From assembly GCA_043804695.1 (NCBI GenBank), contig JAZDIV010000121.1:1-21599 (forward strand): a stretch of DNA of 21,599 bases. Direction: 5' to 3'. The translations under genes were made by a program, and so were the position numbers. The notes beneath the pieces were generated by a model that was given only the letters and a program-made list of their open reading frames with translations, had not been told where the DNA came from and did not search any database. Positions within the stretch are counted from its first letter, which is position 1; each line of letters begins with the position of its first letter. Shown here in pieces: positions 4,843-18,490 of the stretch. This stretch comes from PVC group bacterium. Its GTDB lineage: Bacteria; Auribacterota; Erginobacteria; Erginobacterales; Erginobacteraceae.

Positions 4843-5444
4843 TTAAAAGACCGGGAATGGGTAAGGGTTACGATGCCCGTTTCGGTTAAGGTAAGGGTAA
4901 CGTGCGTTGTCAAAACATGCGTTGGTGCTTGAGTCTAACGTCATGAACAACCTGAATTTAAGGTTGCTATGATAGGGGCGCGAAAGATAACGAGTTTTCG
5001 GGATCTGGAGGTTTATCGAAATACATATCAGGCTATGCTCCTCGTCATGCGGGAGATTGTCCCGAAGTTGCCGGAGAAGGAAAAATATGATTTAACTGAC
5101 CAATCCAGCCGGGCTTGCAAAGCTATACCGCGGTTAATTGCCGAGGGGTACGCCAAGCGACACCAACGAGCGGGTTTTAAGAAGTATATCGATGATGCCA
5201 TGGCTGAATGCAACGAGATGATAGTCAATTTGTGCCAATGCAGGGATTTGTATGGCAAGTACATAGATACCGATAAATGCGAAACTTTGATCGACACCTA
5301 CGACAAATCAGGCAGACAGCTCTATAAACTAGGCCTGGCCTGGTCAAATTTCAAAATGCAAGGCTAATCATAGAGGCGTGAATCCGTAACCGTAACCGTC
5401 CACCGAAACGGGCTTCGTTACCGTTGCCCTGACCGAATTTAAAA
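4843..5444 (+). mobile_element. Candidate insertion element: inverted-repeat-flanked four-helix-bundle cassette
   Basis: Left arm ~4854-4902 and right arm ~5385-5434 are inverted, with a perfect core GCCCGTTTCGGT (4875-4886) / ACCGAAACGGGC (5402-5413). TTAAAA occurs at 4843-4848 and 5439-5444. The cassette separates adaptor and permease genes that are normally adjacent. Mobility is inferred. Confidence 0.6.
4969..5367 (+). CDS. Four helix bundle protein (23S rRNA intervening-sequence protein / TIGR02436-like)
   Basis: 132 aa with the family pattern 'SFRDLEVY...LPEKEKYDLTDQ..RA..AIPRLIAEGY.KR....F..Y...A..E..E'. More AT-rich than the flanking genes. Confidence 0.9.
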   Translation: MIGARKITSFRDLEVYRNTYQAMLLVMREIVPKLPEKEKYDLTDQSSRACKAIPRLIAEGYAKRHQRAGFKKYIDDAMAECNEMIVNLCQCRDLYGKYIDTDKCETLIDTYDKSGRQLYKLGLAWSNFKMQG

Positions 5445-9517: not shown

Positions 9518-10610
9518 TAATTCAGGCAGCGGGCCGGTGACCGTCCATCTCGCGGACACTCTCTCCGATGGCCGGGGAGAACAGCTGCTCGACGACATCG
9601 TCCGGATGACCGCCCGGGGAAACCGGGATATCCGGATCGACCTGAAAGGGCTCGGCCGCATTGACAGCCGGGGCTGCGCCTGGCTGATCCGGGCGGTCCG
9701 GGCCGGGCGGGAGGCCGGCGCCCGGATCTCCCTCACCGGGGCGCAGGGGGGCGTGGCCGAATTCATCGAGCTGATGCGCGGCAATTTTGATCCCCCGCCG
9801 TGGCCGGCGCGTCCCCGTCCCGGCCTGCTGGAGCGGCTGGGTGACCAGGGCCTGACGGCTGTCGGGGAAGCCCGGGAGGCCGGGGCCCTGATCGTCGACG
9901 CCGTCTACTGGTCTTTCATCGCCCCGGCGGAGGGGCGGGGCATCAGGTGGAAGGGGCTTTTTACCGAGATCCAGGAGATGGGTTCGAGCGCGATCGGGAT
10001 CGTCTGCCTGATCAACTTTCTCCTCGGGCTGGTGATCGCCATGCTCTCCGCGGTCCAGCTCCGTCTTTTTAACATGCAGATTCTGGTCGCCAGCGGGGTG
10101 GTGATCGGCTTCGCCCGGGAGCTGGCGGCGGTGATGACCGGGATCGTGGTCTCGGCCCGGACGGGAGCCGCCATCACCGCCCAGATCGCGACCATGAAGA
10201 TCTCGGACGAGATCGACGCCCTCCGGGGGATGGGGTTGAACGTGACCCGGTTCCTGGTCGCCCCCAAGTTTCTGGCCATCCTGATCTCCCTTCCGATCCT
10301 GACGGCTTTCGGTTTTGTCTCCGGCGTGGCGGGAGGATTCGTCCTCGGCGTCTTCTCCCTGGGGTACACCTTCGACCGCTGGTGGTGGCAGACCCTGCAG
10401 GCCGTGAAAGTGGGCGACATCACCCAGGGTTTCGTCAAATCATTTTTCTTCGCCATGATCATCGTGATTGTGGGGTGCCACAACGGGCTCCGGGTGACCG
10501 GCGGGGCGAGCGAGGTCGGCCGGGCGACGACCAGGTCGGTCGTGATGGACATCTTCCTGATCATCGTGGCCGACATGCTCTTCGCGACGCTGTTCTATTT
10601 TACGACGTAA
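9498..10610 (+). CDS. mlaE: MlaE-family ABC permease with N-terminal STAS domain
   Basis: STAS motif 'IDLKGLGRIDSRG'. MlaE motifs 'RELAAVMTGIVVSARTGAAITAQIATMKISDEIDALRGMG' and 'VGRATTRSVV'. Start uncertain (9456 or 9498). Confidence 0.9.
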   Translation: MDQIRPDNSGSGPVTVHLADTLSDGRGEQLLDDIVRMTARGNRDIRIDLKGLGRIDSRGCAWLIRAVRAGREAGARISLTGAQGGVAEFIELMRGNFDPPPWPARPRPGLLERLGDQGLTAVGEAREAGALIVDAVYWSFIAPAEGRGIRWKGLFTEIQEMGSSAIGIVCLINFLLGLVIAMLSAVQLRLFNMQILVASGVVIGFARELAAVMTGIVVSARTGAAITAQIATMKISDEIDALRGMGLNVTRFLVAPKFLAILISLPILTAFGFVSGVAGGFVLGVFSLGYTFDRWWWQTLQAVKVGDITQGFVKSFFFAMIIVIVGCHNGLRVTGGASEVGRATTRSVVMDIFLIIVADMLFATLFYFTT

Positions 10611-10620
10611 ATAAACGATC

Positions 10621-10648
10621 GCCACCAAGGCACCAAGACACGAAGAAA
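10621..10648 (+). repeat. Orphan left arm of the 8-bp-period CACCAAGR repeat
   Basis: GCCACCAAGGCACCAAGACACGAAGAAA, nearly identical to 11654-11681. Confidence 0.8.
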
Positions 10649-10718
10649 AGAAAGAATAAAAAGGTAATTGTTGGTTTAGATCAGAACTAAAGTGTTATTA
10701 GAGGGTGAGGGGAGGGCA

Positions 10719-10760
10719 ACTTTAGGCACTTTAGATCACTTAAGGCACTTTAGGCACTTT
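10719..10760 (+). repeat. 9-bp-period tandem repeat (ACTTTAGGC)
   Basis: ACTTTAGGC ACTTTAGATC ACTTAAGGC ACTTTAGGC ACTTT, with a short inverted remnant CTAAAGTG at 10687-10694. Confidence 0.8.
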
Positions 10761-10817
10761 AACGTCCCGATTATTCCCGGGTAAGTATTAGCACCCGACC
10801 ATGAACTGGTAATTAAT

Positions 10818-11618
10818 ATGACCATGCAGCCCATTATTAAAGTACGGGACTTGATTGCCGGGTATGACAATATCGTGGTTTTGAACGATATCTCTTTCGA
10901 CGTGTACCCGGGCGAGATACTGATGGTGATCGGCGGCTCCGGCTGCGGCAAATCGACCCTCCTCCGGCAGCTGGTCGGCCTGCAAAGGCCCTTTTCCGGT
11001 TCGATCAGCTACTGGGAGAGAGACATCACCGGGATGGACGAGGATGAACTGGCTCATCTCCTTCACCGGGTGGGGCTGTCATTCCAGGAGGGCGCCCTTT
11101 TCAACTCCATGACCGTTGCCGAGAATGTGGCTCTCCCGATGGAGGAGTCCGGCGGCATGGACCGGGAGCTGATCCGGGTCCTGGTACGGATGAAGCTGAG
11201 CCTGGTGGGCCTCGGCGAATACGGGTATCTGATGCCGGAGGCGCTCTCGGGCGGGATGAAGAAGCGGGTCGGTTTCGCGCGGGCGATCGCCGTCGATCCC
11301 GAGATTGTTTTCTTCGACGAACCGTCCGCCGGCCTCGATCCGATCATCGGCGCCGGTCTCGACGAGATCATTCTCGATATCCGGCGGCTCATGAATCTGA
11401 CCATGGTCGTGGTTACCCATGAACTGGAATCCATAAAAACCGTGGCCGACCGGGTTCTGATGCTGGACGGGGGCAGGATTATCTTTATCGGGTCCCTGGA
11501 GGAGGCTGAAACTACCGATCAGCCCCGGGTCAGGCAGTTTTTTGACCGGAAACCGGATGCTTCTATCGGGGAACTCAATAACCGCAGCTTGTTAACCCCC
11601 GTGTTGCGAGCGCAGTGA
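10818..11618 (+). CDS. mlaF: MlaF-like ABC transporter ATP-binding protein
   Basis: Walker A GGSGCGKS, 'FQEGALFNSMTVAENVA', signature LSGGM, Walker B 'VFFDEPSAGLDP', H-loop 'VVTHEL'. Confidence 0.92.
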   Translation: MTMQPIIKVRDLIAGYDNIVVLNDISFDVYPGEILMVIGGSGCGKSTLLRQLVGLQRPFSGSISYWERDITGMDEDELAHLLHRVGLSFQEGALFNSMTVAENVALPMEESGGMDRELIRVLVRMKLSLVGLGEYGYLMPEALSGGMKKRVGFARAIAVDPEIVFFDEPSAGLDPIIGAGLDEIILDIRRLMNLTMVVVTHELESIKTVADRVLMLDGGRIIFIGSLEEAETTDQPRVRQFFDRKPDASIGELNNRSLLTPVLRAQ

Positions 11619-11653
11619 GCTAACCTGCTGCTTCGGAATTTCAATAATTATTA

Positions 11654-11741
11654 GCCACCAAGACACCAAGGCACCAAGAAAGAGGGAAGGTAAAATATCC
11701 ACCTTATGTGGTTTTTCTTGGTGTCGTAGTGTCTTAGTGGC
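11654..11741. repeat. Gene-less inverted-repeat element with 8-bp-period arms
   Basis: Arms 11654-11681 and 11714-11741 match at 24/28 positions as reverse complements, around a 32-nt spacer. Confidence 0.85.
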
Positions 11742-11788
11742 AAAAGTTGCGAGCGCAGCGAGCTAATTTATATTAAGGGAGGAGAACA

Positions 11789-12532
11789 GTGTCAACCAAA
11801 TCCCAGAAAATAAAAGTGGGGATTTTTATGCTGGTCGGTGTGGCCCTGACCGTGGCGGTTTTTGTCGTCATCGCGCTCAAGGACCGGACACCGACCGATT
11901 CCTATTTCATCATTTTCCAGGAAAGCGTGAGCGGTTTGAAGAGTGATTCCCCCGTCCTCTATAAAGGCGTCCAGGTGGGCAAGGTTCAGGATATTCGCGT
12001 CAAGGATAACAACGAGATTGTTGTTCAGATCGGCATCGAGAGAGGCAAGGTAACATTGCGGGAAGGAACCGTGGCCAAACTTGACCTGGCCAACCTGATG
12101 GGGGGCATGGTGGTCGAGCTTTCCGGGGGAAATATCCATTCCCCCTGCCTGGTGCCGGGGGCGCATATCACGTCGCAGACCTCCGTGCTGGAAAACCTGG
12201 CCAAGGATCTCCCGCAGATTCTTGATGATATCAAGAAGATACTGGGCAATCTGAACCGGGCGCTGGGGGAGGGAAACGCGGACAGGATAGGCTCACTGCT
12301 GGTTAACGCCGACCGGACGTTCATCTCCCTCAGCGAGACCCTGGATGTTTTAACGAAACTGCTCCATACAACCAGGAGCGACCTCGCCGATAGCGGCTAC
12401 GAACTGCGGAAAACCATGCTCAGCTTCCAGAGAGCCATGATCGAAGCCGCCCAGACCATGCACTTTCTGAAGAACGACCCCTCGTCAGTTATGTGGGGAC
12501 GGTCCAAACCGGAGAATCCATATGTTAAATAG
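11789..12532 (+). CDS. mlaD: MlaD/MCE-family protein
   Basis: RBS GGAGG and GTG start. N-terminal TM, MCE motif 'FQESVSGLKSDSPVLYKGVQVGKV', helical C-terminus ending 'NDPSSVMWG'. Confidence 0.9.
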   Translation: MSTKSQKIKVGIFMLVGVALTVAVFVVIALKDRTPTDSYFIIFQESVSGLKSDSPVLYKGVQVGKVQDIRVKDNNEIVVQIGIERGKVTLREGTVAKLDLANLMGGMVVELSGGNIHSPCLVPGAHITSQTSVLENLAKDLPQILDDIKKILGNLNRALGEGNADRIGSLLVNADRTFISLSETLDVLTKLLHTTRSDLADSGYELRKTMLSFQRAMIEAAQTMHFLKNDPSSVMWGRSKPENPYVK

Positions 12533-12534
12533 GG

Positions 12535-12599
12535 ACTGGTTACTGATTACTGGTTACTGGTTACTGATTACCGATCACTGATTACCGATTACTGATTAC
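12535..12599 (+). repeat. Heptamer tandem repeat ACYGRTY x9
   Basis: ACTGGTT ACTGATT ACTGGTT ACTGGTT ACTGATT ACCGATC ACTGATT ACCGATT ACTGATT AC. Confidence 0.92.
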
Positions 12600-12625
12600 A
12601 TTTTTTAAATACAAGGGGATTAGCC

Positions 12626-13267
12626 ATGAAACGAATCTATGTAGTTCTGCTGTCAGCAGTAGCACTGACCGGAGCAGTCTCCTGCGGTTCTCACCTGCCG
12701 ACCTATTATTATTTGATCGAAACCGGTCCGGAGGTGACGAAGGCGGAGGAAGTCATTTCGCTCAAGGTCGACGTTAATCCCGTCCGCGCGCCGGATCGAT
12801 ACCTGAATCGAATCGTCTTTCGCCGGGGACCGTTCGAGGTCGGTTTCTATGAGTACAGCCAGTGGGTGGAACTTCCCGCCGCCATGGTGCGAAGAGCCCT
12901 CATTAATGCCCTCAACGAATCGGAGCTTTTCGGCCAGGTCGATCTTATCGGCAGCGATCCGGCGGCCGATCTTGATCTGAACTCCGAGATCGAAAGCTTT
13001 GATCAGGTGATAGAGGAAGATGAATGGTACGCCGCCTTTGACCTGATCCTTGAATTCAACCGCCACGATACCGGAGCGCCGGTCTGGAGCTACCGTACCG
13101 GCGCCCGGGTGAAGCAGAAAGGGGAGGGAGAACTGGCGGCGGCAATGAGTGAAGCGGTGAGCCGGGCGCTCGTCCAGGCGGTATCGGAGATGGAGCAGTC
13201 GGAAGAACTGCGGAAACTGCCTGATACATTTGCCGAGGAAAAGATAAAATCAGAAACTCGTAATTAA
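12626..13267 (+). CDS. PqiC-like / ABC-type transport auxiliary lipoprotein
   Basis: Lipobox 'AVSC', 'TYYYL' and 'IVFR...FYEYSQWVELPA'. Follows the MCE gene, as is usual for this operon type. Confidence 0.82.
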   Translation: MKRIYVVLLSAVALTGAVSCGSHLPTYYYLIETGPEVTKAEEVISLKVDVNPVRAPDRYLNRIVFRRGPFEVGFYEYSQWVELPAAMVRRALINALNESELFGQVDLIGSDPAADLDLNSEIESFDQVIEEDEWYAAFDLILEFNRHDTGAPVWSYRTGARVKQKGEGELAAAMSEAVSRALVQAVSEMEQSEELRKLPDTFAEEKIKSETRN

Positions 13268-13288
13268 TTGCTTCGGAATTTCAAAAAC

Positions 13289-13405
13289 GGTAACGGCAAG
13301 GGTAACGAAGCCCGTATCGGTGAGGGGAACGGTAACGGCTGCCTCGCTGGGCGCACGTAACCGTAACCGGCAGACGAAACGGGCCTCGTTACCGTAGCCG
13401 TAACC
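13289..13405. mobile_element. Empty (gene-less) copy of the four-helix-bundle cassette arms, MITE-like
   Basis: By hand count, left arm 13289-13337 matches 4854-4902 at 38/49 ungapped and right arm 13356-13405 matches 5385-5434 at 42/50 ungapped. The spacer is only 18 nt. Confidence 0.75.
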
Positions 13406-13445
13406 AGTTGCGAACGAAGTGAGCTAACTAAAGGGAGTGCTTAAG

Positions 13446-14681
13446 ATGAGCGGGCTCAACCTTCTCAGCCTGGCCGGAATCGTGGTTCTTCTTCTGATCG
13501 CGTTCATCTTTTCCAACAATAAAAAGAAGATCCGCTGGAAGATCGTCCTGATCGCCCTGCTTTCGGAGTTTGTCTTCGCTTTTCTCATCCTCCACACGGG
13601 CCCGGGGATGGCGTTCTTTAATTTCATCAGCAACGCCATTGTCCGGGTGCTGAGCTTTGCCTATGACGGGATCGACTTTGTCTTCGGATGGCTTTACTCG
13701 GGGGATGGGATCAAGAACTTCCAGGTCCAGCACGCGTTCATCCTGGAGGCGCTGGTCCCGATCGTCTTTACCGGATCGATTATAGCCGTTCTTTACCATT
13801 ACAAGATCATGCAGGCGGTGGTGAGGTGGATATCCATCCTCTTCACCAAGGCGCTCGGCATCAGCAGCGCCGAGTCCCTGGCCACGGTCAGCAATGTTTT
13901 TTTGGGGCAGACCCAGGCTCCGCTCGTGATTGCCCCCTATGTACAGAAACTGACCGAGTCCGAGTTCTTCGTGCTCATGGTCAGCGGCATGGCCACGGTG
14001 GCCGGGAGCCTCTTTGTCGCCTACAACGCCATGGGGGCGCAGATGAGCTACGTGCTGGCCGCCAGCATCATGGCCGCCCCCGGTGCGATCATCATGGCCA
14101 AGATCATGATCCCGGAGATCGGGACACCGGAGACGGAGGGGGACAAGCCGGTCATCGAGGACGAGCCCAAGACCCTCAACTTCCTCGACGCCATCGCCCA
14201 GGGGGCGACCGACGGCTGGAAGGTGACGGTCGGGGTGGCCGTGATGCTGCTCTCGTTCGTCTCCGTCATCTACCTCCTTAATTACTGTGTTGGCCTGGTG
14301 CCCGGACTTCATCTTTCTCTCGACAGGATCCTGAGCTGGATCTTCACGCCGATCGCTTTTATTATCGGGGTTCCCGCGAAAGATATCCCCGCCGTGGCGA
14401 CCATGCTGGGGAAGAAGACGGTATTTAACGAGTTTATCGCCTACGCCGACCTGAAGGGATATGTGGCCGCCGGGCTCTCCCCGCGCGCCTACCTGATGAC
14501 CTGCTTCGCCCTGACCGGGTTTGCCAACTTCTCCTCGATCGCCATCCAGATCGGGGGGATCGGCGAGATCGCTCCCAGCCGCCGGAAGGACGTGGCCAAA
14601 CTGGGGTTCCGGGCGGTCCTGGCGGCGGTCCTGGCCAACCTGCTCAGCGCCGCCATTGCCGGCGTGATGTTCTTCAGCTAA
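13446..14681 (+). CDS. nupC: Concentrative nucleoside transporter (CNT, NupC-like)
   Basis: 'AESLATVSNVFLGQTQAPL', 'SGMATVAGS', 'KTVFNEFIAY', 'FALTGFANFSSIAIQIGG'. ATG 13446 lies 8 nt after GGGAG. Confidence 0.92.
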   Translation: MSGLNLLSLAGIVVLLLIAFIFSNNKKKIRWKIVLIALLSEFVFAFLILHTGPGMAFFNFISNAIVRVLSFAYDGIDFVFGWLYSGDGIKNFQVQHAFILEALVPIVFTGSIIAVLYHYKIMQAVVRWISILFTKALGISSAESLATVSNVFLGQTQAPLVIAPYVQKLTESEFFVLMVSGMATVAGSLFVAYNAMGAQMSYVLAASIMAAPGAIIMAKIMIPEIGTPETEGDKPVIEDEPKTLNFLDAIAQGATDGWKVTVGVAVMLLSFVSVIYLLNYCVGLVPGLHLSLDRILSWIFTPIAFIIGVPAKDIPAVATMLGKKTVFNEFIAYADLKGYVAAGLSPRAYLMTCFALTGFANFSSIAIQIGGIGEIAPSRRKDVAKLGFRAVLAAVLANLLSAAIAGVMFFS

Positions 14682-14934: not shown

Positions 14935-15080
14935 ATGAAGGTGTGAATCCGATCAGAAGGTTTGTCGGCGCGGTGATCAACTCGGTCAGCTTCCGGCTCG
15001 CGGTTATCTGACTGCTGGTCATGCTGCTTCTGATCCCCGCTTTCATGGTCCGTTCTCTCATCCGGGAAAGAGAGAACCGG
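14935..15080 (+). pseudogene. creD: 5' remnant of creD (inner membrane protein CreD)
   Basis: RBS GAGGAGG and ATG 14935, then an apparent 1-nt frameshift. From 14943: VNPIRRFVGAVINSVSFRLAVI*LLVMLLLIPAFMVRSLIRERENR, matching the CreD N-terminal 'LLLLIP..I..LI.ER' pattern. Internal TGA at 15009-15011. Confidence 0.75.
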
Positions 15081-15726
15081 GGAGTATGAGAAGGCCGCTG
15101 AATCGCTCAGGGCCCTAATCGAAAAATTTCCTTACGCTTCCGGGCACCGCAGCGGAGATGCCCTGATGTCTATCAGAGCCAAACGCTGGTTTTACGACCA
15201 GCTCACGGAGAAGGGCATCGACCTTTCATTCCTGGACGCTCTCATCACCCGGCAGAAGGACCCGGCGAACTTCAATCGCCTCACGGCGAGGCAGCTGTAC
15301 CTCGTCGCCCACCCGCTCAAGGACGAAAACGAAGCAGCGGGGGCGATCGAGGCCTTCAAGCGGATTGTGTGGAAGTTCCCGAACGAGAGCTTCACTCCGG
15401 ACGCGTGTCTTTCCGCCTTCGAGCTGCAAGTCAAGCAGAAGCAGTATGACGGCGCCCTGGCGTTGGCGCGCGCGATGATCGAACGCTATCCCGACGCGGA
15501 GGTAGGCAAGGGGGGACCGCTGGGAGCTATCGGCTATTTCAGCGCCGGGGTGGTTCATTTTGCGCGGCAGGAATACCGGGAGGCGGCGGACGCGTTCGAG
15601 ACGGTCGCCCGCGACTACCCCGCTGCGGCCAACATCGGGGGCGTCTCGCTGCGTTCGCTGATCGCGGAACAGTATCTGGAAACCGTTGCCCGGAAGGACA
15701 TGAAGATTCAGGGTATCCATGATTAG
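15079..15726 (+). pseudogene. 5'-truncated tetratricopeptide-repeat protein
   Basis: Repeated 'Y.xA...F..I...FP/YP' TPR units. Coding character extends upstream of ATG 15166 (GEYEKAAESLRALIEKFPYAS from 15079), and no native start or RBS is present. Confidence 0.65.
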
Positions 15727-15902
15727 GCGTCGGCAGCCAGGTGCCCCCTGGCCGCCCGGGCACTAGTCGGTGAACATGAGTGGCGCCGGAAAGAGTCCAC
15801 CCCGCGTGCCGGGGTGGAGACATGGCGGGGAACTGAAAGGGAATCCCCCCATCCCTGCCCCACGGCTAACAAATGCTTCCCGATACCACGGGCTTGACGT
15901 TG

Positions 15903-15930
15903 GGCTCCGGAGGCCAGCGCTCTATCCAAT
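15903..15930 (-). other. Internal tRNA-Arg(CCG) fragment (possible att-site scar)
   Basis: The reverse complement ATTGGATAGAGCGCTGGCCTCCGGAGCC reads as D-loop, 3' D-stem and anticodon arm with loop CT-CCG-GA. No acceptor stem or T-arm. Confidence 0.7.
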
Positions 15931-16023
15931 CGTTGTGGAACATCTACTAAAATTATTCCTCCGGCTTTAAAAAAGGAGTAAGATTGGTGTTTGGAATCAG
16001 TAAACCGTCCAAAGGAAATCGTC

Positions 16024-16053
16024 TTAACCCGATTTATTCATAAATCGGGTTAA
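16024..16053. repeat. Palindrome of CCCGAT...ATCGGG type
   Basis: TTAACCCGATTTA-TTCA-TAAATCGGGTTAA, 13-bp arms. Confidence 0.8.
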
Positions 16054-16132
16054 CCTAAATACCCTGGTGACGCCGAGCTTCAAGATCGTCAAACCGGGGA
16101 TGATCTCTGTTGTTCAACAAGGGAGTGAGAAA

Positions 16133-17347
16133 ATGGCTGAAAAATTTGTTCGCAGCGCTACGCGGGTCCGGAGTTTTGAAAATCCCGAGTTCGATTTTCA
16201 GCTCCTGCGTTCCCTGGGAGTCGTTTTTGCCGGCGGCGGGTCGGTGGGCGAGGTTTTAACCGTCGCCGCCGCCATCGGAGAGCCCACCCCGGAAAAATGG
16301 GTGAAAGAGTTTTCGACCATGGCGGATAAGGTCGAACAGGAGGCCGCACGCTGTCGGAAGCTCGGTCGGAACGTCTCTGCCCGCTCGCTTTTTCTCCGCG
16401 CGAGCATGTACTACCGGGCAGCCGAATATTTCCTGGACCTCGATTCCCCGGAACACGACCCGATGGGCCTTAAGAGTCGCGACGCTTTCCGGTCCGCCTG
16501 TCCCCTCCTGGAACCGGAGGTGGAAGTGGTCGAAATCCCTTACGCCCCCATCCCCCTGCCCGGTTACTTCGCCCGCTCCCCCCGGGGAGAGGGCAAAAGC
16601 CTGATCATCTGCGGGGGCTTCGACTCCAGCGGAGAAGAGCTTTATTTCAACGCCCTGGGGGCGCTCGAGCGCGGTTTCAACGTCTTCTTCTTCGACGGCC
16701 CCGGCCAGACCGGGATGATGCGCCTCAAGCCGAGGCTCCCTTTCCGGCCCGACTACGAGGCCGTCATCGGACCGGTGTTCGACTACGTCCTCGGCCGGGA
16801 AGAAGTCGACCCCGAACGGGTGGGACTGCTCGGGATCAGTTTCGGGGGGTATCTCGCCCCCCGGGCGGCCGCTTTCGATGCCCGGATCAAAGCCTTGATC
16901 CCCGATTCGCCCATCACCGACTGGCGGGTATACCTTGGTGATGAGTTCGGCCCGGAGAAGGAAAAAATACCCGACTTCACCTCGGCGGATTTGCGGCAGG
17001 CGGGCGACGAGGAGGCGACACTGCTCCAGAAGCAGATGCTGATCCACATGATGCGCAAGTTTGGCGTGGACTCCTGGCACGCGCTTCTGGCGTCGCTATC
17101 CGAATTCCGGCTCTCGCCCGAAAACCAGGCTCGGATTATTTGCCCGGTCCTCGCCTGTATCGGCGAGGGAGAGGGTGAAGAGGCGAAACGGCAGAGCGAA
17201 GAACTCGTCGGAAACGTGAGCGGGACCGCCGCCTCTCACACATTTACTGTCACCTGGGGCGCCGACGCCCACTGCCAGGTCAACAATACCGCCCGCTTTT
17301 GGCAGGTGGCCTATGACTGGCTCGAGTCGCTCTTCGAAAAAAAATAA
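16133..17347 (+). CDS. Alpha/beta-fold hydrolase (FrsA/S9-like esterase type)
   Basis: 'ICGGFDS', 'FDGPGQ', nucleophile elbow GISFGG, catalytic His in 'ADAHCQ'. ATG 16133 follows GGGAG. Confidence 0.88.
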   Translation: MAEKFVRSATRVRSFENPEFDFQLLRSLGVVFAGGGSVGEVLTVAAAIGEPTPEKWVKEFSTMADKVEQEAARCRKLGRNVSARSLFLRASMYYRAAEYFLDLDSPEHDPMGLKSRDAFRSACPLLEPEVEVVEIPYAPIPLPGYFARSPRGEGKSLIICGGFDSSGEELYFNALGALERGFNVFFFDGPGQTGMMRLKPRLPFRPDYEAVIGPVFDYVLGREEVDPERVGLLGISFGGYLAPRAAAFDARIKALIPDSPITDWRVYLGDEFGPEKEKIPDFTSADLRQAGDEEATLLQKQMLIHMMRKFGVDSWHALLASLSEFRLSPENQARIICPVLACIGEGEGEEAKRQSEELVGNVSGTAASHTFTVTWGADAHCQVNNTARFWQVAYDWLESLFEKK

Positions 17348-17579
17348 AACAATTTCGCTTTATCGCCTCCAGCAGTCGTTTCGCCAGCTCGATCAACTCC
17401 GCCCGGCTCCCGAACCGCAACAACACCGTCTCCTTCTTCTTTCCCGTGCGGATGTTGATCTTCGATCGCCAATCCTTATCCTTCCCGAGATCGACCGGCA
17501 CCGTTGTTTCGCCCTGAAAGGCGGTACCGCCAGTAACTTCTTTGTACGGAATCCGCCGCGCGTATCCGTCCTTGCCCAC
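17280..17579 (-). CDS. Possible small hypothetical protein or gene fragment
   Basis: Fills an otherwise empty gap and has protein-like composition, but has a GTG start with no RBS and a 68-nt overlap with the hydrolase 3' end. Confidence 0.3.
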   Translation of the reverse strand: MGKDGYARRIPYKEVTGGTAFQGETTVPVDLGKDKDWRSKINIRTGKKKETVLLRFGSRAELIELAKRLLEAIKRNCFIFFRRATRASHRPPAKSGRYC

Positions 17580-17689
17580 AGCATTTTTTTATTGCCAGAG
17601 CGGGGTTCGCCGTCGGATAATGAATGCCTGCCCGGATTCCACCCGCCGTGGGCTGGAAGGCATGTGATTTATTTTCAGGAGGAAGAAGG

Positions 17690-18252: not shown

Positions 18253-18424
18253 ATTAATATTACTTCCGCATTTCCCCGATAGCCATCGGAGTGCGCCTCT
18301 GGCGCATAATAAATATGATAATATAAATCGACAGATGAATTATATCCAGAGAGGCAAGTGCTGGCTGAAGTTATAAGGCATTTTTAAGTAGTGCCTCGAT
18401 GAAAATATTTTAGTTTAGCCAACA

Positions 18425-18455
18425 GCTCCCCCCGATTGATTCAATCGGGGGGAGC
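18425..18455. repeat. Palindrome of CCCGAT...ATCGGG type
   Basis: GCTCCCCCCGATTGA-T-TCAATCGGGGGGAGC, 15-bp arms. Confidence 0.8.
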
Positions 18456-18490
18456 CAGTATAAAGTAGCGGCGAAGCCGCTAATTTATTG

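Follow-up and report, generated by a model that had tools for sequence, protein, structure and literature searches.

Two gene-less inverted-repeat elements lie between genes of a lipid-transport operon on contig JAZDIV010000121.1, and our preferred reading, held with a little better than even confidence, is that both belong to a family of polar, non-coding mosaic repeats, restricted to one lineage, in which an inferred carrier is copied as a whole. Each unit is framed by a left motif (A) and a right hairpin module (B), and this pair is common to many unrelated hairpin cassettes. The units lie between genes and mostly point at the next start codon, and the family is probably selfish and stackable, filling the gaps between genes. 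The window analyzed is the entire contig of 21,599 nucleotides (nt), C121 of the studied genome, G000, whose assembly of 2.97 Mb is divided over 155 contigs, has 57.8% G+C, and is 88% complete. Comparisons were made chiefly with a genome of the same genus, G001, and one from another genus of the family, G003. The genomes in question are ~3 Mb in size and roughly 20% non-coding by our own gene calls, which were made with a crude caller.

The two elements of the window

The elements occupy the junctions between mlaF and mlaD and between the lipoprotein and nucleoside transporter genes, within a co-directional gene row. A first-pass annotation of the window had reported the 16-mer TGCTTCGGAATTTCAA to the left of each element and the 21-mer GTTGCGARCGMAGYGAGCTAA to the right, and both motifs are where it placed them: A is exact at 11629-11644 and 13269-13284, with no other match in the window at ≤3 mismatches (0.17 expected by chance), and B is present at 11746-11766 and 13407-13427. 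A third copy of B, overlooked at the time, lies at 11603-11623 (0.01 expected), five bases ahead of the first A, so that the first element reads B0-A-hairpin-B1. The inverted repeats said to lie inside the frame are confirmed as CACCAAGR-octamer arms at 11651-11681 and 11714-11744 (31 nt, 84% complementary) and GGTAAC-type hexamer arms at 13280-13319 and 13375-13414 (40 nt, 78% complementary). Compared with shuffles on the + strand, the fold strength of the two hairpins corresponds to z scores of -4.2 and -6.9. They had been called unrelated and indeed have no sequence in common, and they are objects of the same kind, arms of short-period repeats. The ribosome-binding site (RBS) proposed after each 21-mer is also found, as a Shine-Dalgarno-like run followed by the start of mlaD (GTG at 11789) or of the nucleoside transporter gene. 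The parts of the two elements are as follows.

11603-11628, + strand: B0, a B-type hairpin (21-mer 11603-11623) with the linker CCTGC, enclosing the TGA at which mlaF stops (11616-11618)
11629-11644, + strand: first copy of motif A, the left frame module; the C at 11628 is part of A
11651-11744, + strand: CACCAAG cassette, a gene-less hairpin with octamer-repeat arms that match the arms of a GxxExxY gene at 79-95% identity
11746-11771, + strand: B1, hairpin GC GA GC - GCA - GC GA GC with a bulged T and the tail TAATTTAT, directly ahead of the RBS and the GTG of mlaD at 11789
13269-13284, + strand: second copy of motif A, one base past the stop codon of the MlaD-associated lipoprotein gene
13285-13406, + strand: GGTAAC cassette, a gene-less hairpin with hexamer-repeat arms and an inner hairpin; arms 81-84% identical to 4860-4902 and 5385-5434
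13407-13427, + strand: B2, hairpin variant GC GA AC - GAA - GT GA GC, ahead of the nucleoside transporter RBS

The mlaF reading frame (window 11586-11623) extends into B0 and ends at the TGA there; in G001 it stops earlier, at a TGA where the window has TTA.

Genome-wide organization of the frame

Motif A has 166 copies in G000 at ≤2 mismatches, 159 of them intergenic. Module B was searched by five variants taken from G000 sequence, which makes its copy numbers lower bounds, and has at least 356 de-duplicated copies, 343 of them outside predicted genes; with these counts, short extragenic palindromes in high copy number are a feature of the genome. The two motifs do not occur independently of each other, since a same-strand B lies ≤300 nt downstream of 94 of the 166 A copies, compared with 6.6% of 3000 random intergenic positions and strands. 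The composite mosaic with a shared frame that the first-pass annotation had put forward is borne out by this pairing and by the variety of the cassettes, with at least 10 families between A and B in G000 and others in related genera.

The unit consists of a left module, C-TGCTTCGGAATTTCAA-(T/A)AA, a variable hairpin cassette, and B as the right module. Units also follow one another directly. A copy of B ends ≤30 nt upstream of 33 of the 166 A copies, roughly three in four of 165 copies have TAAnTTvC as the 8 nt preceding A, and the GC of a B hairpin stands just ahead of this sequence in about half of them. The repeating order is B tail, A, cassette, B tail, A, cassette, B tail, a head-to-tail stacking in which A comes after the tail of the previous B, and arrays of the form B-A-cassette-B-A-cassette-B form a mosaic of palindromes and conserved linker motifs.

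Module B comprises a small GC hairpin capped by a C-GNA-G triloop, often including a tandem G.A step and a bulged T, and a tail TAA-N-TT-N'. Copies begin GTTG, TTTG, GTAG, ATTG, or TTAG, so that GTAG is one form among several. Three tail types occur (TAATTTA, TAAGTTC, and TAACTTG), with positions -5 and -2 complementary in 55 of 69, and the base after the tail is C in 29 of 30 B tails that have A next; among the 20 commonest tails of terminal B copies, 191 end in T and 18 in C. In 120 long-form copies the pair next to the loop is G-C in 77, C-G in 26, A-T in 12, and non-Watson-Crick in 5, and the tandem GA/GA step is present in 102. Because the loop-adjacent pair covaries and the tandem step is possible on the given strand only, B is taken to be a strand-specific subterminal hairpin. 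In minimum-energy folds the loop side of B also pairs with the 5′ half of A, but this pairing is not claimed, as A stays almost constant across the different loop bases of B.

Both modules are polar with respect to the downstream gene, which is co-oriented with A in 95 cases and opposed in 30 (142 intergenic of 148 non-palindromic copies), and co-oriented with B in 259 and opposed in 69. B lies between divergent genes 56 times and between convergent genes 14 times, at a median distance of 14 nt from the start codon. Where local genes lie on the minority strand of their contig, the direction of the genes is followed by B at 9 sites and not at 6, and by A at 9 and not at 4; the polarity of both modules may reflect gene direction or replication direction, which would be inseparable in these data.

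Cassettes and their gene-bearing relatives

Single-linkage clustering of the sequences after A merged all of them, because modules are common to the families, and the families were therefore defined by prefix clustering on the first 28 nt, which gave at least 15. The contents of 98 sockets (≤1 kb) were catalogued.

GGTAAC: 22, in either orientation
232-nt element starting with a palindromic A: about 14
CACCAAG: about 12
GTGTAAAG, GTGGGAG, GATTAAAC, several longer modules, and combinations: the remaining repeat contents
tRNA gene between A and the next B: one (G000 C100, ~13300-13600)

The CACCAAG family has 38-41 copies, of which, in a table of 38, 29 have B and 16 have A, and its orientation to the frame is always the same (33/33). 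The GGTAAC family has 39 copies, 34 with B and 25 with A, of which 30 are oriented to the frame in the same way and six are inverted. Small hairpins nest at one point within A itself, between TTTYCA and CAATAA. The 232-nt repeat is found in ~35 places in G000 (e.g. C48:33354-33584) and consists of A and an inverted A as a perfect hairpin, ending in B. It breaks the assembly, as shown by the many contigs that end within it, and has no Rfam match where tested.

The first-pass annotation had proposed cataloguing what lies within the frame, from nothing to arms only to small genes. Arms only are the rule, and at other sites arms of the same kinds surround a four-helix-bundle or a GxxExxY gene. The cassettes appear to be related to hairpin elements that bear a four-helix-bundle, GxxExxY nuclease, or RAYT gene, of which they have the arms only. 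The relative of the GGTAAC cassette is in the window.

4850-5434, + strand: GGTAAG/GGTAAC arms around a 132-aa four-helix-bundle gene (4969-5367; PF05635, E 4.7e-17; TIGR02436, 52 bits), without A or B

This element sits between HlyD-type and AcrB-type efflux genes and is absent from the orthologous junction of G001, where there is a small hairpin only. All six PF05635 genes inspected in G000 lie between inverted arrays of a short repeat, and each of the six has a different unit; the further five are C101:154-468, C27:7680-8000, C143:7265-7579, C83:1916-2212, and C120:13417-13638, with the units GGGGAAT, GATCAGT, GTGTAAAG, AAATCCTA, and a GACGAATG-like sequence. Each PF05635 protein may match its own repeat unit.

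The sole PDDEXK_3 (GxxExxY) gene of G000 (C127:42541-42888) lies within CACCAAG arms with 79-95% identity to the window cassette. Its element, C127:42514-43103, has a duplicated right arm, and ~40 gene-less CACCAAG hairpins are dispersed in the genome. One GxxExxY gene with many CACCAAG hairpins parallels one RAYT gene with many REPINs, and GTGGGAG hairpins flank both sides of a RAYT gene on C62 (NF047646, 134 bits). Neither A nor B was found beside the gene-bearing copies of any of the three kinds, four-helix-bundle, GxxExxY, or RAYT; the frame goes with the dispersed gene-less copies. In PMC3424549, the function of PDDEXK_3 is given as 'Unknown'.

Turnover at orthologous junctions

Seven regions (~130 kb) were aligned between G000 and G001, with coding DNA ~75-93% identical. 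They contain 59 junctions, 18 of which carry A in G000, and the G001 counterparts of these 18 were classed by eye.

same cassette type: 1/18
different cassette, A and/or B retained or left as remnants: 7/18, both window junctions included
other filler or nothing alignable, without A or B: 9/18
cleanly empty: 1/18

Junction occupancy turns over fast between these sister species, and A is kept at ≤3 mismatches in only three of the 18 orthologous junctions. The mlaF-mlaD junction of G001 has a degenerate A, a GTGTAAAG hairpin, and B, and at the lipoprotein-transporter junction there are an A-like 16-mer and a GATTAAAC hairpin but no B core. At a further junction (C155 9902), A is diverged in both genomes and the cassette and B differ. 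The clean empty site (C37 628) reads ...AAAGATATAATATTATG... in G001, where G000 has B0-A-GGTAAC-B1. The mla junctions in other genera of the family are without A or B and hold other short-period arrays or are only ~30 nt long. A metagenome scan with MlaD gave two distant loci, at 47% and 29% identity, too far for fine-scale junction comparison. No sequencing runs are listed for window 10600-14000.

In a tree of the GGTAAC family (35 rows, ≥80% coverage), the five inverted copies fall on one side of a branch with 98% support. The tree implies two changes of orientation, one of them from a frameless long-branch row, whereas the shuffle minimum was three and none of 300 shuffles reached the observed value.

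Distribution among relatives

At ≤1 mismatch, A has 121, 127, 123, and 21 copies in four genomes from three genera of the family, 0-1 in five genomes of a fourth genus, and 0-4 in 32 more distant relatives, with 0-2 for a reversed-pattern control. An extended exact A pattern gave 68 matches among the species genomes searched, confined to six assemblies that include Candidatus Euphemobacter frigidus, Ca. Erginobacter occultus, and Ca. Tritonobacter lacicola. The repeat family is lineage-restricted to a small group of uncultured bacteria.

All 30 exact-A loci inspected by eye in G003 have a tail, A, TAA or TAG, a cassette, and then B, and the same order of tail, A, cassette, and B holds in all seven loci of four other assemblies. 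The cassette families of G003 differ from the common ones of G000; the frame is the conserved part and the cargo varies between genomes. That the frame itself multiplies is indicated by the presence of the exact 16-mer in several genera and by its 68 exact copies in G003.

Proposed copying of the frame and its cassette

We favour a carrier that hairpins invade and that is itself copied together with them as one composite. In such a system, A, acting as a sequence, and B, acting as a one-strand structure, would be the cis-acting ends of a non-autonomous element, and an enzyme would copy the whole element, frame and cassette together. Hairpins of different origin would be nested into the carrier. 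Insertion would take place directly after the TAA-N-TT-N' tail, without terminal inverted repeats or clear target duplication, in a single-strand HUH style; A is preceded by TAA-N-TT-N'-C and is not the reverse complement of B, and a single clean empty site bears on target duplication. Exchange of a cassette would be the addition of a new unit after a B tail, with the old one lost by deletion between direct copies of A or B. Copying as a unit is favoured by three results: the inverted GGTAAC copies form one clade, the clean empty site is without the frame as well, and the frame multiplies.

Several results weigh against this reading. Set against length-matched coding controls, no more than 28 of 95 socket contents have a fold stronger than the 5th percentile, so that strong folding holds for the main cassette families and not for every socket content, and two near-empty frames were seen in G000, A with 9 nt and B (C87) and A with 7 nt and a hairpin (C23). 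The clean empty site has TAA on both sides, which makes a short target duplication possible. Neither B class nor the presence of A is linked to the cassette trees, which are short and of poor resolution, and the seven junctions with a frame around another cassette fit insertion into a resident frame equally well. Mobilizing enzymes with A or B at their ends were also sought without success. None of the six Y1 genes (PF01797) of G000 has A or B within 1.5 kb, eight Y1 loci of A-rich G003 have no common DNA repeat and no A, the ends of the two full IS91-type Y2 copies in G001 are free of A and B, and no IS91-type gene was found in the G003 contigs.

Y1 and Y2 genes were accordingly rejected as mobilizers of A and B, as their own ends lack both. 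The number of Y1 genes does not track A either, with 14 Y1 matches and no A in another genome, G009. An IS91-type remnant of 28 residues in G000 (C70:20689-20772) lies between a palindromic A and a B, on the other strand. In G001, locus L071 (C21, the whole 5963-nt contig) carries two tandem IS91-family Y2 transposase genes, each with a tyrosine-recombinase-like gene.

Alternative explanations

A possible reading, though a doubtful one, is the landing pad or exchangeable cassette frame that had also been proposed in the first-pass annotation: A and B would be a resident frame, hairpins (RAYT repeats, GxxExxY-armed, and four-helix-armed) would insert at a preferred point within it, and the cassettes would be what moves. 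Part of this proposal stands, in that seven of the 18 orthologous junctions in G001 keep A and/or B around a different cassette, among them C155 9902 and both window junctions, and it would account for gene-bearing parents of three cassette kinds without A and B, for GGTAAC in both orientations within the frame, for the insertion hot spot for small hairpins in A, and for the existence of near-empty frames. The notion of a stable pad fares less well, since the frame too is lost at most junctions, with A recognizable at only three of the 18, and the clean empty site is without frame and cassette alike. The inverted GGTAAC copies, every one in a frame of its own, group in a single clade, as expected if frame and cassette are copied together, the frame itself multiplies, and empty frames are rare.

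The composite carrier that we prefer can be put in a bolder form, which we consider rather unlikely as it stands: A and B would be the ends of an undescribed carrier with its own enzyme, confined to a few Auribacterota genera, that captures hairpins of at least three unrelated selfish systems, spreads them as polar cassettes docking at start codons, and would amount to a platform for such non-coding cassettes. The captured systems, on equally slender odds, would be RAYT repeats, GxxExxY-gene arms, and Avd-like four-helix-bundle-gene arms. If the frame is a carrier, one pair of non-coding ends could collect and amplify hairpins from different selfish systems, which would explain how ~3-Mb genomes fill nearly every operon junction with repeats.

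It is improbable that A and B are a regulatory module of the host, that is, selected RNA signals such as an intercistronic processing site or a 5′ stabilizer or insulator hairpin before the RBS, with incidental cassettes. Such a function would suit the co-orientation of both modules with the downstream gene, the fourfold greater frequency of B between divergent than between convergent genes, its short distance from the start codon, and the presence of units inside operons. The units are, however, not conserved at the orthologous junctions of G001, whose genes are 80-90% identical to those of G000, and other genera of the family have ~30-nt empty junctions or other filler at the mla sites. The cassettes show no sense-strand G.U excess (101 vs 102 for CACCAAG and 38 vs 85 for GGTAAC), which together with the lack of orthologous conservation argues against a purpose-built RNA element. 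The window and locus L028 gave Rfam 15 matches at gathering scores for rRNA and tRNA genes alone and for none of the repeats, and a promoter and terminator scan of 10550-13500 gave no more sites than shuffles. A secondary effect of B on the downstream gene is possible.

Integron-type cassettes, in which the hairpins or B modules would be attC-like sites recombined by an integron integrase, are a very remote prospect and were rejected: the frame looks cassette-like and integrases above the cut-off occur in G001 (two) and G003 (one), but none reaches it in the 88%-complete G000, the cassettes carry no genes, B has the order GTT...AAC, the reverse of the order AAC...GTT of attC sites (R'' RYYYAAC and R' GTTRRRY boxes), and the true attC sites of contig C7 of G001, which read ctaac...gcgctccacccgac...gcgggtgagc...gttag, are unlike A and B, neither of which was found inside that array. 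The locus concerned, L153 (G001:C7:233073-241624), is a complete integron with a 470-aa integrase and about eight small open reading frames separated by attC-like hairpins, with a typical A-cassette-B unit immediately beyond the stop codon of the integrase gene.

Relation to known repeat systems

BOX elements of Streptococcus pneumoniae have the structure boxA-boxB(n)-boxC, with a variable number of one module in the middle, and to our knowledge no enzyme has been assigned to them. The units described here are likewise non-coding and intergenic, with constant left and right modules around a variable middle, but the middle is one of many unrelated hairpin families.

The ends of IS200/IS605 and IS91/Helitron elements differ between left and right, lack terminal inverted repeats, and have a subterminal hairpin near the 3′ end. 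A and B are similarly unlike ends, with a GC hairpin carrying an unpaired base near the 3′ end, strand polarity, and a putative insertion site after a short specific sequence, and the tails GTTC and CTTG equal what we take to be IS91 target tetranucleotides. In contrast to these HUH elements, A and B do not enclose a Y1 or Y2 gene, and there is no conserved left-end hairpin; the likeness is one of resemblance rather than membership.

The system is best described as repeats of the repetitive extragenic palindrome (REP) and bacterial interspersed mosaic element (BIME) type in varied form. In Enterobacteria and Pseudomonas, REP, BIME, and REPIN-RAYT systems also consist of short extragenic palindromes in hundreds of copies (PMC3479197, PMC3116915, PMC3337134), and palindromes with conserved non-palindromic linkers form mosaics between operon genes (PMC3479197). 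In PMC3479197, IS200/IS605 transposases are also related to REPs; PMC6006769 is also on this topic. One cassette family here, GTGGGAG, flanks a true RAYT gene. The differences are that A and B flank no Y1 gene, that there is no constant GTAG or CGTC tag, that the units are strongly polar and end at start codons, and that one frame carries many unrelated hairpins, including the arms of four-helix-bundle and GxxExxY elements.

Intervening sequences of 23S rRNA that carry an S23p/four-helix-bundle (Avd-like) gene are regarded as selfish (PMC4990558, PMC10053308). They too have a small PF05635 gene within inverted repeats, and the GGTAAC and GTGTAAAG cassettes have the arms of such genes. The elements described here differ in lying between protein-coding genes and not in rRNA, in using a different 6-8-nt unit for the arms of each gene copy, and in having arm-only derivatives in ~40 copies with the A/B frame. 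The 23S rRNA match of G000 (L028 4464-7532, on C48) measures 3069 nt against a model of 2925 positions, and this gene may hold an intervening sequence.

In Nostocaceae, Elhai and colleagues are said to have described in 2008 small dispersed repeats inserted cleanly into other repeats to give nested mosaics. The very small hairpin modules found here are also nested cleanly in other repeats, although phylum and sequences are different, and we know of no two-module frame shared among the Nostocaceae repeats.

Titles and abstracts on Auribacterota genera and on GxxExxY, TIGR04256, PDDEXK_3, and PF13366 contain nothing on these repeats, though full texts or supplements may hold remarks. What this analysis adds is a census of the frame, the finding that genera with different cargo keep it, a comparison between orthologous junctions, and the tracing of both cassettes to gene-bearing elements. 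The tie between short-period-repeat hairpins and PF05635 and PDDEXK_3 genes offers a testable idea for the role of these widespread families. The repeats also break assemblies and mimic leaders, riboswitches, and terminators, and knowledge of their grammar prevents false regulatory calls in this phylum.

Other features of the window

Three further junctions of the window carry related modules.

10621-10782, + strand: modules of the mlaE-mlaF junction, comprising a CACCAAG left arm without its partner (10621-10644), an array of the 9-mer CTTTAGGCA (10720-10762), and a small hairpin
12534-12600, + strand: unframed one-sided heptamer array (GGTTACT/GATTACT) at the mlaD-lipoprotein junction, without A or B
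18260-18488, + strand: third frame, with an A-like remnant holding two small nested hairpins, a ~150-nt cassette, and the B hairpin GTAGCGGCGAAGCCGCTAA (18465-18483)

The A remnant of the third frame is too degenerate to have been detected by the 3-mismatch search, and the tail of its B touches the start of an M16 peptidase gene. At the mlaD-lipoprotein junction of G001, the heptamers of this array form both arms of a hairpin that encloses a further small hairpin. The window has 1.87 kb more than G001 at 15713-17583, with an alpha/beta-hydrolase gene (16067-17347), and G001 holds 2.7 kb extra at the point matching window position 15080 (15075-15084).

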